The notes below the pieces were generated by a model. That model was not told where the DNA came from. It ran no database searches and saw only the letters and a program-made list of their open reading frames with translations. 20,717 nt of DNA, from the UHGV virus genome UHGV-1961940; one strand, given 5' to 3'. Positions 11,952 through 19,053 of this stretch are shown here, one piece after another; position 1 is the first letter of the stretch, and each line of letters begins with the position of its first letter. The translations under genes and the position numbers were made by a program. Source of the DNA: a virus.

Positions 11952-13136
11952 TTAAGCTTTAGCCAAAATGGCGCTAAACTCTTCACCAAACTCTTTTACA
12001 ATCTTCATCAGGTTTGGGTATGCTTTGATCAGCTGAGCAACAATCTTGTCACGCCCTTTACCGATAAGCAAGGCATTTCCTAAGGCATTAGGTTTCATCA
12101 TCGCCATAAAGACTGAGAATACAAAATCTCGGTTCTCGTCCTTGAAGTTTTCCCAAAGGAAATCGAGGAAGTTTGCCACGCAGCTGACAAGATCTTCGTC
12201 TGAGATACTTGCATTTTCCATCATATTGCGAATAGCGATACAACCTTCAGATCCAAGAATCCACAAAATGTCTGGCTGCTTAGGACCTACGTATTCTTTG
12301 CAGCCACCTGCCATAATCCGACCGATTTCCGGTAAATTACGTTTCTTGGTGTGGTAAGTCCAGATCTCTACCGCTGCAGTGTGACCAATAGCACCTTGTA
12401 GAAGAACACGGGCCATAGCGTCAGAAATAATACCGCTGTCAAAATCGTGCAAGATGTCAGATGCAGCAACCCAAGATCGTGGTGTGGCAAAAGATGGACA
12501 ATTAATCTCAGCCATAGCCTCATAATTATCAATAGCTGATGGAACTCTTTTCAGATACCCAATTACAGAGGAGTGAACCCCGTTGAGGAATGCGTAGTCC
12601 TCAATAAACACCTCTGCATTGCTTGTAACCTCTACAATGATAAAACGGTTAGCCAGAGGGGCTTCGAGCGCCGAAAGAACCGCACCATCTGTAGAACGGT
12701 TACCCGCAGCCACAAAAACAGAACCCTTAGGGAATGCATAGGTGCCGCACTTGTGGTCAAGCATAATTTGCATTGCAACCTTTTGCAGGTAGTTATCTGC
12801 ATGAGTGAGCTCATCCAGAAAGATAATTCCGCTCCAGTCAGGATCCGCAGGCCAAAATTCTGGAATTGCAAACACTGTACGTGTAGTTCCATCCGCTTCT
12901 ACAGGGATAGGTAGCCCAGATAAGTCGGCAGGATCTTTATCTGACAGTCGCACGTCAACAAGGTTGTCATCTCGCTCACCGAACATATTATCAGCGATCT
13001 GCTTCATCACCTGGCTTTTACCCACACCCATTGGTCCCAAAATTAGGACAGATCGGCTATGACGTTGGGCAAACTGAATAATAGCTGGCAACTCACGGAC
13101 AGTGATTTGACCACTTTCGAATACGTTTCTTGACAT
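11952..13136 (-). CDS. MoxR-like AAA+ ATPase (AAA_5 / CbbQ-NorQ-CobS-like)
   Basis: Walker A 'LILGPMGVGKSQ', Walker B 'IIFLDELTHAD', and a sensor-1 region 'VFVAAGNRSTDGA...LEAPLANRF' that resembles the MoxR 'ATxNP...L..A..DRF' pattern. Confidence 0.8.
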   Translation of the reverse strand: MSRNVFESGQITVRELPAIIQFAQRHSRSVLILGPMGVGKSQVMKQIADNMFGERDDNLVDVRLSDKDPADLSGLPIPVEADGTTRTVFAIPEFWPADPDWSGIIFLDELTHADNYLQKVAMQIMLDHKCGTYAFPKGSVFVAAGNRSTDGAVLSALEAPLANRFIIVEVTSNAEVFIEDYAFLNGVHSSVIGYLKRVPSAIDNYEAMAEINCPSFATPRSWVAASDILHDFDSGIISDAMARVLLQGAIGHTAAVEIWTYHTKKRNLPEIGRIMAGGCKEYVGPKQPDILWILGSEGCIAIRNMMENASISDEDLVSCVANFLDFLWENFKDENRDFVFSVFMAMMKPNALGNALLIGKGRDKIVAQLIKAYPNLMKIVKEFGEEFSAILAKA

Positions 13137-14090: not shown

Positions 14091-14446
14091 TATTCTACCT
14101 CCTCTTCTTTTTCTTCGGCATTAGTTTCATGGCTACCCCACTCGGGAGTTTCCACCTCGATAGTAAACTCACGCACTACACGGTAATTGCCCATGAAGCG
14201 CTCTACTTCGTCAAGGCTTATGGAGAGGCCATTGGCAACCAGGTCTGCAGCACCCTCTTCTACCAGGTAGTCCAGATTGGCTTCCAGAGCCTCAGGTTCA
14301 AACCCTGTCAATGCAATCAGATAACCTTCCCCTTCATCAGGGAGGACAATACAGCCCAATTGATTTTCTTTAAAAAGGCAGTGACCATCATTATTGATTG
14401 GGTGTTCATTGCAGTAAATAGCTGCACGATAAGTAACTTTAGACAT
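14090..14446 (-). CDS. hypothetical acidic protein beginning MSKVTYRA (118 aa from ATG 14446; track ORF starts at TTG 14467)
   Basis: AAGGAG RBS 9 nt upstream of the ATG at 14444-14446, and an in-frame TGA two codons upstream of the TTG. The start region lies inside the 29-bp inverted repeat. Confidence 0.5.
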   Translation of the reverse strand: MSKVTYRAAIYCNEHPINNDGHCLFKENQLGCIVLPDEGEGYLIALTGFEPEALEANLDYLVEEGAADLVANGLSISLDEVERFMGNYRVVREFTIEVETPEWGSHETNAEEKEEEVE

Positions 14447-14451
14447 CGGTA
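14423..14451. repeat. Left copy of a perfect 29-bp inverted repeat (reverse complement of 16285-16313)
   Basis: Checked base by base: the reverse complement of 14423-14451 is 'taccgatgtctaaagttacttatcgtgca', identical to 16285-16313. Both flanks mismatch immediately outside the 29 bp. Confidence 0.9.
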
Positions 14452-14459
14452 AGGTCTCC

Positions 14460-14738
14460 TTAGGCAATTGTCATTTTACATTCTTGAAATTTTAACACAA
14501 GACGGTAATTGTGTCTAGTGTCTAAAAAGATTTTTTCAACCATCAGGCACACGGTATAACCGTCCATCTTGTTGACAACAAAATCTCCAGGATGAGGGAG
14601 GATGTCTCCCGGATTGGGGAAACATAGTCCACTCAGAAAGGCATCGTCAGTGGTGGACTTAATAGATTTCCACACACTGTCTGCCTGAACATGTTCACCG
14701 ACGTAATATACATTACCACATGCCTTCATCATAGTCAA
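14460..14738 (-). CDS. hypothetical protein (92 aa)
   Basis: Track ORF; ATGA overlap with the upstream 299-aa gene. Its TAA stop overlaps the RBS of the next gene. Confidence 0.45.
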   Translation of the reverse strand: MTMMKACGNVYYVGEHVQADSVWKSIKSTTDDAFLSGLCFPNPGDILPHPGDFVVNKMDGYTVCLMVEKIFLDTRHNYRLVLKFQECKMTIA

Positions 14739-15634
14739 ACCCTCGCATAAATTAAACTTGTATCAGTATACTTCTTTAATGGGTAAATATCCTGTCCATA
14801 GATGCAATCATTAAACACCTCATCTACCCAAAGGCTACACTTATATCCCATCATTTCTAAAACACCCATCTCTTCTTCGGTAAACTTATCACCGCTCTTG
14901 CAAGATGTCAATACCTCATTCTGAACTCTTGCTACCTCGAAGCGGTTATTGGCAATATCGCTATTGGCGATCAAATACTCACCTAGAGGGTGTGCGGCAT
15001 TAAAGATGCACAGTGGACGGCTGACGTAATAGTCTCCAGGTGTATAAAAATTGTTGAGGTCTTTCACTAGAACATTCTTATCAGTCACTTCATTTATAAC
15101 ATCATGCATATCGCACATCTTTATATGTTTGAGGATTCCATCCCCCATCACAAAATAAAAACTTGCTGAGACACTTTCGGCATAGATCTTACTAGATCCG
15201 TTGTAGTTGTATTTTACTCGGATGCTAACGGGGGTTTTTCCTGTCGCGTTAGCCATCATCCAAAGAAATGGCAGCTCATACTTCTCCTCTGAGGAAACAA
15301 AAGGTGAGGTAGCCAGAGATCGAAAACCTCCAGAGAAGTTGAAAGTTACAGAACCGCTCCGGCGGTATGATACCGCGTATTCTACTTTTATATCGACATA
15401 CCCATTGGAATAGGTGTGTCCTTCATTATCTAAATATGTCCACTTATCAGACCCAGATACCAATCTACGCTCAATAACCTTCATCACTATAGGAATTAAT
15501 GGGTTGGTACAAACCGCTTTTGAAGTAGCTTTATCATCTAAAGCCTCGTAAATTGCAGAAAGGATGTCCCCAGCTGAAAGATTGGTTGTTATGTCCTGTT
15601 TCCACCGCGTACTAAAACTGTTAAGATTTGCCAT
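14735..15634 (-). CDS. hypothetical protein (299 aa), first gene of the leftward operon
   Basis: AGGAG RBS 9 nt upstream of the ATG at 15634, and a near-consensus promoter directly upstream. No motifs recognised. Confidence 0.6.
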   Translation of the reverse strand: MANLNSFSTRWKQDITTNLSAGDILSAIYEALDDKATSKAVCTNPLIPIVMKVIERRLVSGSDKWTYLDNEGHTYSNGYVDIKVEYAVSYRRSGSVTFNFSGGFRSLATSPFVSSEEKYELPFLWMMANATGKTPVSIRVKYNYNGSSKIYAESVSASFYFVMGDGILKHIKMCDMHDVINEVTDKNVLVKDLNNFYTPGDYYVSRPLCIFNAAHPLGEYLIANSDIANNRFEVARVQNEVLTSCKSGDKFTEEEMGVLEMMGYKCSLWVDEVFNDCIYGQDIYPLKKYTDTSLIYARV

Positions 15635-15674
15635 AAGTAAGTGCTCCTATGTTAGTTTTCTTTCGAATGGGTGC

Positions 15675-15703
15675 ACTATATTGTGGAGTTAGAGTAAAGT
15701 CAA
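15675..15703 (-). promoter_or_regulatory. Sigma70/SigA-type promoter for the leftward operon (-35 TTGACT, 17-nt spacer, -10 TATAGT)
   Basis: Minus-strand reading 'TTGACT ttactctaactccacaa TATAGT': -35 at 15698-15703, -10 at 15675-15680, about 40 nt upstream of the ATG at 15634. Confidence 0.45.
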
Positions 15704-15721
15704 CACGTTTTTGATGTTGAC
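15699..15721. promoter_or_regulatory. Palindrome GTCAACA-N9-TGTTGAC spanning back-to-back -35 elements (candidate operator)
   Basis: Perfect 7-bp inverted arms at 15699-15705 and 15715-15721. The left arm contains the leftward -35; the right arm contains TTGACA (15717-22), which with 17-nt spacing to 'TACGAT' (15740-45) gives a possible rightward promoter. Confidence 0.4.
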
Positions 15722-16754
15722 ATCTGTTGAGACAATTGATACGATTTCTTCACTTACAGAGCACGAGAGACGACTCATGAATCTTGAAAAATATTATACA
15801 CCAGAAGAGTTAGAGCGCTTGCTCAAAAAATATAGACGCAAACAGAATAACGCACGGAAACGAGATATAGAGTTCGACCTGTCATGGGAAGAATACCTCC
15901 TATTTGGTAAAAAACTTTTAGGAGATGGAGTATGCGACTATACCCTTATACCTTTTGACATGCACACAGATGAAAACGGGCTGGGGAATCCTTTCTACCC
16001 ATCCCTGGAGCGGATAGATGATGAAGGTCCTTATGCGGTTGATAACTGTTGTGTGGTGGGATTGAGATGCAACTCTCTAAAGGACTGTCTGGTAGATAAA
16101 AAGACTGCAGTCTTGATTAAAGACGAAACTGATCGAAAAATTGTCCAGCAGATGATGCTCCACCTGAGCGAAGAGCGTATGGAGAAATTGAAAGGTGATT
16201 ATACTTTTGAAGATTTCATCTTGCAATATGGAACGGAAGAGGATAAACTAGCACTCTTTGACGAAGAAGAGGAGGAAGATATGCTACCGATGTCTAAAGT
16301 TACTTATCGTGCACCCAAGAAGCACATTTCCGACATTGTAAACGAGCCTATCACAGAAGAGATTGAAGAAATGACGCAACAGGTGCATGAAGAGGAAAAA
16401 GAGACTCAGGAGGTCGAAGAGGAGCTTACAGAAGAGGTTCCTGCACTACCTGATGATGTTGAGATTGCCAAAGCTTACACTTTCTATTGTCAAACGTTCT
16501 ACGATGTAGGTATGAAAGTTGATCTGTCGTTCAGCCAATTTAAGAGTTCGTATATTCGCAAATGCTGTGCTTTAACTGGTGAACGTCTTGGAGCTGGACT
16601 TAAACCCCTGTTGGTGACCGACTGGAATAAAGGTTTCACTAAAGGAAACTTTATGGTAGTATCTCCAATTATGAAGAAAGCTATGACAGATCTTATGAAG
16701 ACCACCCGCATGACAATGACCGAGTTGGCAGGTATTTTCAAACACGTTAAATAA
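15711..16754 (+). CDS. Hypothetical protein (347 aa by track): basic/Cys N-terminal domain with possible degenerate HNH/His-Me-finger-like motif, acidic linker, distinct C-terminal domain; start uncertain
   Basis: 'YRRKQNNARKRDIEFDLSWEEY...CDYTLIPF...PSLERIDDEGPYAVDNCCVVGLRCNSLKD' loosely resembles small phage HNH-type endonuclease domains, but with Arg where the catalytic His would be. Acidic runs 'DEEEEED', 'EEEKETQEVEEELTEE'. If the rightward promoter at 15717-45 is real, translation more likely starts at ATG 15777. An internal RBS (GGAGG) plus ATG at 16281/16290 coincides with the 29-bp repeat. Confidence 0.55.
   Translation: MMLTSVETIDTISSLTEHERRLMNLEKYYTPEELERLLKKYRRKQNNARKRDIEFDLSWEEYLLFGKKLLGDGVCDYTLIPFDMHTDENGLGNPFYPSLERIDDEGPYAVDNCCVVGLRCNSLKDCLVDKKTAVLIKDETDRKIVQQMMLHLSEERMEKLKGDYTFEDFILQYGTEEDKLALFDEEEEEDMLPMSKVTYRAPKKHISDIVNEPITEEIEEMTQQVHEEEKETQEVEEELTEEVPALPDDVEIAKAYTFYCQTFYDVGMKVDLSFSQFKSSYIRKCCALTGERLGAGLKPLLVTDWNKGFTKGNFMVVSPIMKKAMTDLMKTTRMTMTELAGIFKHVK
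16285..16313. repeat. Right copy of the perfect 29-bp inverted repeat (see 14423-14451)
   Basis: 'taccgATGtctaaagttacttatcgtgca' read directly; in frame it encodes (L)PMSKVTYRA inside the 347-aa ORF. Confidence 0.9.
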
Positions 16755-16759
16755 TGACA

Positions 16760-16774
16760 GGGGCCAATGGCCCC
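16760..16774 (+). other. Palindromic hairpin GGGGCCA-a-TGGCCCC between the 347-aa gene stop and the VWA gene
   Basis: Perfect 7-nt arms read directly, followed by a T-rich 'ttctggagtttta'. It contains the ATG at 16767, suggesting the real start of the next gene is ATG 16788. Confidence 0.3.
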
Positions 16775-18248
16775 TTCTGGAGTTTTAATGGATAGCAGAA
16801 GTTCAGAAATCATTGCCTCGCAGAAAGATGATGCCCTGAGAATGTTGCAGGCTGCACGTATGTATCTCCTTGAAAAGCTGCCGTTTTATGGCACACTACT
16901 GTCAGGGTTGCAGTTCGTAGAAAACCACACATGGTGCTCCACCATGGCAACCGACCATAAACGCATCTATTACAGTCCTGAGTTCATTATGGGATTGGCT
17001 GATGAACGCAAGGCTATTCTTAAGGCTTCTCTAACTGACGAGCAGTTTGAGATGGCTGAAGTTTTCTATTCTCCAAAATCTGTGAAAGAGGTGGCCTTCC
17101 TTCTGTCACATGAGGTGGGGCATATTATCTGTGATCACCTAGTCCGTGGTAAAAGCTTTGAGCCGGAACTGTTCAATATTGCTTGTGATCACGTTATCAA
17201 CACAGGCCTTGTGGTTGACTTTAGCAAACCTCCTTGTGTTTTCTTCCCGAAGGGGAAAAGCACTACGTTCATGAAAGGTAAGCCTTTTGGCTTCTTAGCC
17301 AGCTGCTACTGCGACATGAAGTTTCATGGATGGATTGCTGAGAACGTTTATGCAGTTCTTGATAAGCAAAGAGATCAGAATAACGGTAAAAGTAAGAACG
17401 GTAAAGGTGAGAACTCTCAAAGTGATAAGCGACAAACCGATGATCACATGAGTGGGAACGGTGGCACCAGTGATAATCTTGGAAAGGCTATGGGGTATGA
17501 TCAGCCACAACCTGTAATCAGCCAATCTGATAAAGATCAGGCCATGCAGGACTCTGGTGATATGCTGGAGGCAGCAATGCAAGCGTCCGGAGGCCGTTGC
17601 CCTGAGGCGGTGCGTGAGTTTGTCAAGAACAGAGGTAAGCCTGTAATCAACTATATAGACATCATTAAGCAACGTATGTTGTCTAAAAGAAAGGCCGAAC
17701 TGACCTACAGAAAACCTGGTCGCCGATCTGGGTCTTTGACCAGCACAATGCGAAAAGTTGGGGCTATAAACAAGAACCAGCACGTTATTGTTCCTGGTCG
17801 TAATCCGGAAAACACTATAGATATTGTGGTGGCTTTAGACGTTTCTGGCTCGATCTCTCAAAGAACTTTAAAGAAAATGTTCAATGAAATCACCGGATTG
17901 TGCAATCTGTATAAAGAGTTTAAGGTTACAATGTTCTGTTGGTCAACTGAGGTTGGAGAGGTTAAAGTATACACTCGCGGCAACATAGACGAGATGGTCA
18001 ACTATGAGGTCCACTCAACATGGGGCACAACAGCTGCTTGCGTGTTCGAGTATCTGGATGCCAACATACCTAATGCAAAAGATGTCATCGTCCTGACCGA
18101 CCTATACTTTGAGCATAACTTTGAACAAAAGGTTGTTGACAACAAGTGGAAAAAGTACGATACTCTATGGGTCCTCACTGAGGGGTATAATAAAAATTAT
18201 ATCCCGAGCTTTGGGAAAACTGTGGAATTAATCGAGTACGCTAAGTAA
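16767..18248 (+). CDS. VWA-domain protein with N-terminal putative HExxH metallopeptidase domain (DUF2201-like architecture); likely starts at ATG 16788
   Basis: Zinc-metallopeptidase motif 'LSHEVGHIICDHL'. VWA MIDAS motif 'VVALDVSGSIS' in the C-terminal half. GGAG 5 nt upstream of ATG 16788. Confidence 0.7.
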   Translation: MAPSGVLMDSRSSEIIASQKDDALRMLQAARMYLLEKLPFYGTLLSGLQFVENHTWCSTMATDHKRIYYSPEFIMGLADERKAILKASLTDEQFEMAEVFYSPKSVKEVAFLLSHEVGHIICDHLVRGKSFEPELFNIACDHVINTGLVVDFSKPPCVFFPKGKSTTFMKGKPFGFLASCYCDMKFHGWIAENVYAVLDKQRDQNNGKSKNGKGENSQSDKRQTDDHMSGNGGTSDNLGKAMGYDQPQPVISQSDKDQAMQDSGDMLEAAMQASGGRCPEAVREFVKNRGKPVINYIDIIKQRMLSKRKAELTYRKPGRRSGSLTSTMRKVGAINKNQHVIVPGRNPENTIDIVVALDVSGSISQRTLKKMFNEITGLCNLYKEFKVTMFCWSTEVGEVKVYTRGNIDEMVNYEVHSTWGTTAACVFEYLDANIPNAKDVIVLTDLYFEHNFEQKVVDNKWKKYDTLWVLTEGYNKNYIPSFGKTVELIEYAK

Positions 18249-18263
18249 GAGAGGAGGTTATTT

Positions 18264-18527
18264 ATGGCAACAGAGTTAAAATTTGCATCAAACCGTAAAA
18301 CTAAGAAGTATCTGTCCTCAGTAGCTCCAGGCACTGTGGTGATGTTTGTTGATGAACTTGGGGATGTGAATACAGCACTTGTTGTAAAATCACATCCTGC
18401 AAACATATATGTTGGGGTATTTGACCTGTTCAGAAAGGTGTTTGTAGAACTGCCTCACAGTTTGGTTGTTACAGAAATGGATGCCTGCATAGAAATTCTT
18501 GGCGAAGTTATGGTGGAGGAACAATAA
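18264..18527 (+). CDS. Small protein, paralog family member A (87 aa)
   Basis: RBS 'GAGGAGG' upstream. Shares 'MAT...F.S..K.KK...GTVV...VK...FDL...LP...VTE.D..I.ILGE' with the next ORF. Confidence 0.6.
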   Translation: MATELKFASNRKTKKYLSSVAPGTVVMFVDELGDVNTALVVKSHPANIYVGVFDLFRKVFVELPHSLVVTEMDACIEILGEVMVEEQ

Positions 18528-18790
18528 TGGCTACCAGCATTGTATTCAATTCTAAGGTGAAGAACAAAAAGCGTGCAGACAGTTTTCCGTGTGGGACCGT
18601 GGTAAGTTGCGACGGAGACGGCATTCAAAACATAGTTATGATTGTCAAAACAGGAGAACATTGTGTGTGGGGGTTCGATTTAGAAAATAATGAGTTGTAC
18701 GATCTGCCGCCAAACATGAAAGTTACAGAGCTTGACACCAAAATTACCATCCTTGGAGAGACAAGCTATTCAAAAGAAGGAGGAGAATAA
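18527..18790 (+). CDS. Small protein, paralog family member B (87 aa)
   Basis: Start overlaps the preceding stop; GGAGG RBS. About one third identical to member A by eye. Confidence 0.6.
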   Translation: MATSIVFNSKVKNKKRADSFPCGTVVSCDGDGIQNIVMIVKTGEHCVWGFDLENNELYDLPPNMKVTELDTKITILGETSYSKEGGE

Positions 18791-19053
18791 TGACCACAAA
18801 AATCACTATCGCAGAACCGAAAGCTAACACTCAGCCTATCGAAAAGTTTAAGTACGGTGAGGTGGTAACATTCACACCAGATAATGAAGATGCTAAGATT
18901 TTCGCAATGGTCACAGCTGAGTGGATGTGTGACAACACCACACAGGTTCTGCGTTTTGACACCTATCTTACCGATGAAATCAGGAACGACAAGATTGTGA
19001 CTGGTGTGGATACTGAGATTGTTTTCTACAAGAGCTTTTTAGAGGGTTTCTGA
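18790..19053 (+). CDS. Small protein, paralog family member C (87 aa)
   Basis: Same length and start/stop overlap; AGGAGG RBS. Shares the 'G.VV...V...FD...VT..D..I' pattern more distantly. Confidence 0.55.
   Translation: MTTKITIAEPKANTQPIEKFKYGEVVTFTPDNEDAKIFAMVTAEWMCDNTTQVLRFDTYLTDEIRNDKIVTGVDTEIVFYKSFLEGF

Follow-up and report, generated by a model that had tools for sequence, protein, structure and literature searches.

We analyzed a 20,717-nt stretch of viral DNA (UHGV virus genome UHGV-1961940; "the window") and found that one of its early genes, gene 11, encodes what appears to be a PacI-type His-Me finger domain followed, in the same chain, by a diverged and catalytically dead duplicate of that fold. 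This description can replace the three conflicting labels under which the protein has been filed. There is nothing unusual about gene 11 itself: this early gene is conserved and has already been annotated in a phage genus that is well sampled, and its affinities to Srd of phage T4 and to HNH proteins are known from the literature and from annotation. What is new is the PacI-type assignment, with an invariant Tyr/Arg/Asn set that extends to T4 Srd; the tandem duplication of a seemingly live and a dead module; and the origin of a 29-nt patch between the modules.

Identity, start, and surroundings of gene 11

We assign the window to a Vequintavirus (rV5-like) genome, of which it is a segment. Over positions 15000-17500, the identity is 99.9% with Shigella phage CM1 and 99.8% with Escherichia phage Murica, and coverage of this region reaches 80% or more in 117 phage records. 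(The matches include 16 "Campylobacter phage" records, MG0656xx with host C. jejuni, that are 90-99.7% identical to E. coli rV5-like phages here, which suggests mislabeled hosts or contaminating coliphages.) The product of 15777-16754 is identified by its sequence as the orthologue of rV5 gp11 and Murica gp11. It is 99.7% identical to the Murica and CM1 proteins, and orthologues that are 88-99.7% identical are present in 118 deposited Vequintavirus genomes. Gene 11 lies at the same locus, behind the same promoter, in 117 of the 119 matching Vequintavirus records. Beyond this genus, relatives of full length turned up in Seunavirus, Certrevirus, and Mydovirus and among phages of Acinetobacter and Aeromonas, and a relative at 38% identity (L005) retains the synteny of gene 11 with the DUF2201 gene that follows it.

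Public records describe the gp11 orthologues as "anti-sigma factor," "anti-termination protein," "HNH endonuclease," or "hypothetical"; most GenBank records use anti-sigma factor, and RefSeq uses HNH endonuclease. The rV5 genome paper (2013) considered gp11 a probable homologue of T4 Srd, based on PSI-BLAST, and described Srd as a postulated sigma decoy (PMC3606486). One rV5-type orthologue (P0013) is named "type II restriction endonuclease" in one NCBI source. This name probably reflects an automated PacI-like assignment, and it agrees with our result.

Among the PHROG profiles, phrog_3118 ("HNH endonuclease") matched residues 25-346 of the 347-aa open reading frame (1.5e-112), and the N-terminal part also matched phrog_4592, phrog_1400 (Srd), and endonuclease and endonuclease VII profiles (1e-10 to 1e-13). 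We place the window protein in the PHROG 3118 / rV5 gp11 orthologous group and gene 11 in the phage Srd superfamily (PHROG 3118/4592/1400). The initial annotation, made from the letters alone, had proposed a Pfam search of each half of the protein. This check came back blank: neither the complete protein nor either half had a significant match in Pfam or NCBIfam. The HNH and endonuclease profiles of PHROG do match. Likewise, a Pfam scan of 45 diverse members of the N-terminal domain gave no match to an HNH family, and a PDB search with the single sequence gave no significant match (FliA appeared at E = 3.4). An exhaustive profile search returned 764 cluster representatives at E <= 1e-3. The majority of these are 230-330 aa long, with one matching stretch in the N-terminal and another in the C-terminal part.

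The control elements and the coding sequence are as follows.

15675-15703, minus strand: putative divergent promoter, TTGACT-17 nt-TATAGT (found by scan; annotated in Gotham)
15717-15745, plus strand: putative sigma-70-type early promoter, TTGACA-17 nt-TG-TACGAT, with an extended -10 (scan score 10/12; PhagePromoter annotation in Gotham)
15777-16754, plus strand: coding sequence, 325 aa (stop included), from the preferred ATG 15777
16759-16775, no strand assigned: GC-rich hairpin AGGGGCCATTGGCCCCT, between gene 11 and the DUF2201 gene (gene 12); putative terminator, annotated as such in Murica

The initial annotation had described a 347-aa protein at 15711-16754 and had suspected that this start might be wrong if the rightward promoter (TTGACA at 15717-22, TACGAT at 15740-45) is real. 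The reading frame is indeed uninterrupted from 15711 to 16754 on the plus strand (347 aa counted from TTG 15711), but the start is another matter. Our scan found the promoter, which is annotated at the same place in Gotham. TTG 15711 and ATG 15714 precede or fall within the -35 box of this promoter, the only rightward one, and everything upstream of it is transcribed leftward. The curated records (Murica gp11 and Gotham F10B_0031, 325 aa) start at ATG 15777, and a Shine-Dalgarno-like GAGAG (15765-15769) is found 7 nt upstream of this codon. Homologues at 55-64% identity lack the 22-residue extension, and their starts are within a few residues of M15777. Because the promoter covers or lies downstream of the two earlier codons, because of the GAGAG and its 7-nt spacer, and because the homologues are extension-free, translation most likely starts at ATG 15777. 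The 15711 start, and hence the length of 347 aa, is unlikely, and the suspicion was well founded. Metagenome catalogues also contain gene calls of 346 aa for gene 11; since the 15711 and 15714 starts lie upstream of or in the promoter, these calls probably translate through it.

The rightward early promoter is predicted to drive gene 11, which is the first gene behind it, together with the rest of the rightward operon. We infer that the divergent leftward promoter is functional as well. The -35 boxes of the two promoters (for genes 10 and 11) lie within one imperfect palindrome at 15699-15721, GTCAACACGTTTTTGATGTTGAC, which the scan also flagged as a terminator-like hairpin and which could be a shared operator for a regulator. 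A promoter-like site inside the gene (16258-16285) was rejected: it scored only 9/12, and the number of such sites in the region was at the level of chance (5 found versus 3.8 expected).

On the other side of gene 11, the hairpin AGGGGCCATTGGCCCCT overlaps the earliest candidate start codon of gene 12 (ATG 16767). In Murica, gene 12 starts at the equivalent of ATG 16788, so the start of gene 12 is ambiguous too. This gene (16767-18248) encodes a DUF2201_N putative metallopeptidase domain and a DUF2201 VWA-like domain (4e-28 and 3e-11). In the RefSeq entries for FV3, Murica, and FFH2 it bears the name "HNH endonuclease," apparently an annotation error. Three 87-aa open reading frames in tandem (18264-19053) encode diverged paralogues, two of them at 38% and 19% identity to the first, with conserved GTVV and VTE.D motifs; one of the three was scanned against Pfam, with no match. 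Gene 10 (14735-15634, minus strand, 299 aa) is widely annotated as a "putative alpha 1-3 fucosyltransferase," but this name looks unsupported, as we found no Pfam match at E <= 0.01. An AAA-type ATPase is encoded at 11952-13136 on the minus strand.

A PacI-type module and its degenerate copy

We divided the 325-aa protein into the parts listed below. For the residues of the N-terminal module, we show the corresponding residue of PacI, mapped by HMM alignment, and the conservation among 133 representatives of the N module.

15798-16106, plus strand: predicted N-terminal PacI-type His-Me finger domain, residues ~8-110
15933-15935, plus strand: codon for C53 (PacI C66), conserved in 132/133
16008-16013, plus strand: codons for E78 (PacI D92; Glu in 113 and Asp in 20) and R79 (PacI R93; 133/133)
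16032-16034, plus strand: codon for Y86 (PacI Y100), 133/133
16044-16046, plus strand: codon for N90 (PacI N104), 133/133
16071-16073, plus strand: codon for N99 (PacI N113), 129/133, with His in the other 4
16080-16082, plus strand: codon for K102 (PacI K116), 127/133
16107-16271, plus strand: helical extension of the N module, residues 111-165, with four predicted helices (AF2 pLDDT >93)
16272-16442, plus strand: acidic, hypervariable linker, residues 166-222, predicted to be disordered (AF2 pLDDT 46-59)
16443-16751, plus strand: C-terminal module, residues 223-325, basic (pI 9.35; AF2 pLDDT 91-98)

Sequence profiles and the predicted fold together identify the N module as a PacI-type (tyrosine-type) beta-beta-alpha-metal domain. 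PacI was the sole significant PDB match (E = 6.4e-4) of a profile built from 45 N-module sequences. The AF2 model that we used was computed from an alignment of 80 sequences (pLDDT 88; an alignment of 7 sequences gave a pLDDT of 45.6). [quoted passage not shown] The top structural matches to the model were PacI, McrA, Gme HNH, Cas9 HNH domains, Hpy99I, and T4 endonuclease VII, and the viral fold matches include giant-virus HNH proteins. The initial annotation had compared the N-terminal part to HNH/His-Me-finger endonucleases, citing the motifs SLERID and GPYAVDNCCVVGLRCNSLKD. Both motifs are present, and the PHROG matches and the PacI match bear the comparison out.

The same annotation took the Arg at the expected position of the catalytic His as a possible sign of inactivation, and here we disagree. 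The general-base His at the end of the first strand is absent, and the residue is Arg79 in all 133 representatives, but PacI has the same swap (R93). As described in PMC5714182 and PMC4081073, PacI is an HNH enzyme without the catalytic His, in which a loop residue, Tyr100, substitutes for it and an Asp and an Asn serve as metal ligands. The catalytic residues of PacI have also been listed as H, DR, Y, and CxxCN (PMC11529989). The window protein has both traits of the PacI-like group, the acidic-Arg pair (E78-R79) and the loop Tyr (Y86), and N99 occupies the metal-ligand position on the core helix. Given that PacI has D92-R93 at this place and relies on Tyr100, and that the acidic-Arg/Tyr/Asn set is conserved in the family, the change from His to Arg, although correctly observed, points to a PacI-type signature and not to decay. 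In other words, the missing His is no evidence of inactivation. The annotation had left a choice between a non-catalytic DNA-binding derivative and a family that it did not know, and the second is the better of the two.

The PacI constellation appears to be under purifying selection, and it extends to T4 Srd (srd/dda.2, NP_049634). By hhalign, the window protein matches Srd residues 4-91 with 98.5% probability (E = 3.6e-15), with homology extending to about residue 133, through the "KY" helix; BLASTP gives 3e-7. Thirteen columns are invariant between the family and six Srd sequences (five distinct) of T4-like phages (T4, JS98, JD18, RB49, and two Acinetobacter phages). The positions of E/D78, R79, Y86, N90, N99, and C53 are also invariant in these Srd proteins, and K102 is replaced by Arg. 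The C-terminal half of Srd (~134-248) matched neither the linker nor the profile of the C module.

Some features of PacI are missing from the N module. Neither of the two Cys4 zinc sites on which PacI depends (CxxC...CxxCN) is conserved, and Ile31 is found opposite His42 in the alignment. Two of the PacI cysteines are left in the window protein, C53 and C98 (PacI C112), and only C53 is kept family-wide. Because the zinc sites and His42 are not conserved and because the N module is acidic (pI 4.7), we consider nuclease activity to be plausible but not assured.

Beyond the core domain, the helical extension has a conserved "L..KY" motif around Y142, which is nearly invariant. The linker contains 19 Asp and Glu versus 5 Lys and Arg (pI 4.2), which matches the acidic stretch noted in the initial annotation. 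Its length and sequence vary among homologues and are not conserved.

The C-terminal module is best described as a diverged, catalytically dead duplicate of the N-module fold, which by all appearances arose by duplication within gene 11. When we aligned the N and C profiles to each other with hhalign, the probability of homology was 98.5% (E = 3.3e-15). The C-module HMM also matches the N modules of other members of the family and of T4 Srd, and BLASTP aligns the C module of the window protein with the N domain of T4 Srd (E = 9e-4). The equivalents of E78, R79, Y86, N99, and K102 in the C module are hydrophobic or variable. For example, the equivalent of Y86 is F287, and just 7 of 79 sequences have Tyr there. 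The residues that are retained are C264, D282, and N291 (equivalent to C53, D81, and N90), and Y234 and K256 are also conserved. The homology between the two modules was missed in the initial annotation. AF2 does not predict with confidence how the two modules are positioned toward each other (pTM 0.57).

The 29-nt repeat in the linker

The initial annotation ascribed a shared sequence, MSKVTYRA, to the C-terminal module. The sharing is real and stronger than was described: it reflects a perfect 29-nt inverted repeat, TACCGATGTCTAAAGTTACTTATCGTGCA, for which 100 shuffles gave 0 matches. Comparison does not support MSKVTYRA as characteristic of the C module: its copy in gene 11 is confined to one clade.

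14423-14451, minus strand: putative donor copy of the repeat, comprising the spacer after the ribosome-binding site and codons 1-8 of gene 8 (118 aa, MSKVTYRA...)
16285-16313, plus strand: putative acquired copy, encoding PMSKVTYRA in the linker, found only in the Murica clade

The donor copy is conserved in place in all of the Vequintavirus genomes examined (29/29 nt in rV5 and 27/29 in FV3). A near-full 29-mer is present in 116 records, about 29 of which have two copies, and the window-type linker is found in 28 of 118 records. At the site of the acquired copy, FV3 and rV5 have a 41-nt ancestral stretch (ATGTCACCAATGCAGGATTTTAAAAACTTCATGGCTAATCGTGGAG in FV3). It is flanked by the microhomologies ACC(A/G)ATG and ATCGTG, which the FV3 sequence has in common with gene 8. 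This is most simply explained by a template switch, a short-patch ectopic conversion with gene 8 as the source. The microhomologies would have primed the switch, and 41 nt would have been replaced by 29 nt, in frame, in a linker where nearly any sequence is tolerated. The MSKVTYRA segment looks incidental and recent, and we saw no indication that the patch has a function. An inversion between the two copies would yield in-frame chimeras, and we considered this possibility, but the predicted junction was found in 0 of 118 records.

Possible roles of the product and comparison with known systems

Most likely, the gene 11 product acts on nucleic acid early in infection and helps the phage take over its host. 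PacI is a homodimer with one active site per subunit, so tandem live and dead modules would act as a pseudo-dimer with one site. Our tentative model, to which we give slightly less than an even chance, is that gp11 is such a single-chain pseudo-dimer and acts on nucleic acid in host shut-off. In this model, the N and C modules would together stand in for the PacI dimer and would bind nucleic acid asymmetrically. The N module would cut or nick it, with Y86 as the base or nucleophile and the metal held by E78 and N99. The acidic linker might be a flexible tether or an autoinhibitory mimic of nucleic acid. Made early in infection, the protein would turn on host nucleic acid or pass it on to be degraded, a role demonstrated by genetics for T4 Srd, and would contribute to host shut-off as Srd does in T4. 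The lost zinc sites, the change of His42 to Ile31, and the acidic N module all count against a nuclease. A pI of 4.7 is unusual for a nucleic-acid enzyme, and the invariant residues could serve binding rather than catalysis. Either way, the PacI-style set, invariant in hundreds of phage proteins, offers a testable idea for host shut-off by the Srd family.

Alternatively, gp11 could be a non-catalytic adaptor like T4 Srd that uses its conserved residues to bind the catalytic half of RNase E, and possibly RNA, and so stimulates the decay of host transcripts. T4 Srd is reported to bind the N-terminal half of RNase E and to stimulate host RNA decay (Qi et al. 2015, as cited in PMC13232886). The N module and the helical extension of gp11 are homologous to Srd, and the lost zinc sites and the acidity of the N module would fit an adaptor. 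(This proposal overlaps with the non-catalytic derivative of the initial annotation.) However, the acidic-Arg, Tyr, Asn, Asn set of PacI is essentially invariant over 133 divergent representatives, and phosphate chemistry is the simplest explanation for this. Also, the half of Srd that gp11 does not share may be the part that binds RNase E, and because that half is unrelated, the link to RNase E is not simply transferable to gp11. We consider an adaptor credible but rather unlikely.

A bolder version of the nuclease model, which we regard as a long shot, is that all members of the Srd superfamily, T4 Srd among them, are active nucleases of the tyrosine (PacI-like) type that nick host RNA or DNA directly, as single-chain pseudo-dimers with a live and a dead site in the case of rV5-like phages. 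HNH-type cleavage leaves 5'-phosphate ends, and 5'-monophosphate ends on mRNA are entry sites that activate RNase E. Nicks in mRNA by these proteins would therefore create sites that activate RNase E. If true, this would account in chemical terms for the RNase E-dependent collapse of host mRNA that is ascribed to Srd.

It is also conceivable, but very unlikely, that gene 11 has two products, with the C module also translated on its own (a possibility raised in the initial annotation) from AGGAGG (16270-75) and ATG 16281 or ATG 16290, and with the copied gene-8 initiation region as reinforcement. The AGGAGG is a strong Shine-Dalgarno-like sequence 5 nt before ATG 16281, the patch imports an authentic initiation region before ATG 16290, and most relatives at the level of Vequintavirinae have a Met after the acidic run. 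However, acidic codons rich in GAG and GAA generate Shine-Dalgarno-like strings by default, and the hypervariable linker of the wider relatives has no conserved Met at a fixed position. The patch is missing from about three quarters of the genus, and its RNA folds no better than shuffled sequences (z = 0.37). A stand-alone C-module protein (P0038) turned out to be a fragment at a contig edge and was rejected as evidence of a separate product.

An anti-sigma function for gp11, in which it would mimic sigma-70 or sigma-S as a decoy and switch early to late transcription, seems highly improbable. This idea goes back to the historical label of T4 Srd as a "postulated decoy," transferred by PSI-BLAST (PMC3606486). 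Our Pfam and NCBIfam searches found no significant similarity to sigma or anti-sigma factors, and the PDB search found only the FliA match at E = 3.4. Searches by fold return HNH nucleases, and the role of Srd with experimental support runs through RNase E. Finally, many small phage HNH proteins are homing enzymes and RefSeq names gp11 "HNH endonuclease," but a free-standing homing endonuclease (selfish mobile DNA) is the least probable reading of all: instead of sporadic presence we see the core-gene pattern described above, with a fixed locus and promoter, full-length relatives in other phage groups, and synteny held at 38% identity.

Among known systems, the PHROG 3118 / rV5 gp11 orthologues show no substantive difference from the window protein, and the 29-nt linker patch alone marks the Murica clade. 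PacI (PDB 3LDY/3M7K; group 20 of the His-Me fingers in Jablonska et al. 2017) is the best match to the N module by both sequence profile and fold. As in PacI, an acidic-Arg pair replaces D/H-His, and the loop Tyr, the helix Asn, and the following Lys are in the same register. PacI, a 142-aa homodimer, has its two Cys4 zinc sites and His42, whereas the window protein conserves neither the zinc ligands nor this His and carries in the same chain a helical extension, a linker rich in acidic residues, and a second, dead copy. T4 Srd has the identical invariant C, Y, E-R, Y, N, and N and is likewise an early gene of a large lytic coliphage, but its C-terminal half is unrelated to the linker and C module, and the binding of RNase E was shown for T4 Srd only. 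The C module has its own parallels among the pseudo-nuclease His-Me fingers, such as Smad MH1 and the nuclease-like domain of ENPP, which kept the fold and lost both the His and the substitute Tyr (PMC5714182). These domains have no sequence kinship to the C module, and in gp11 the dead copy adjoins a live-looking one.
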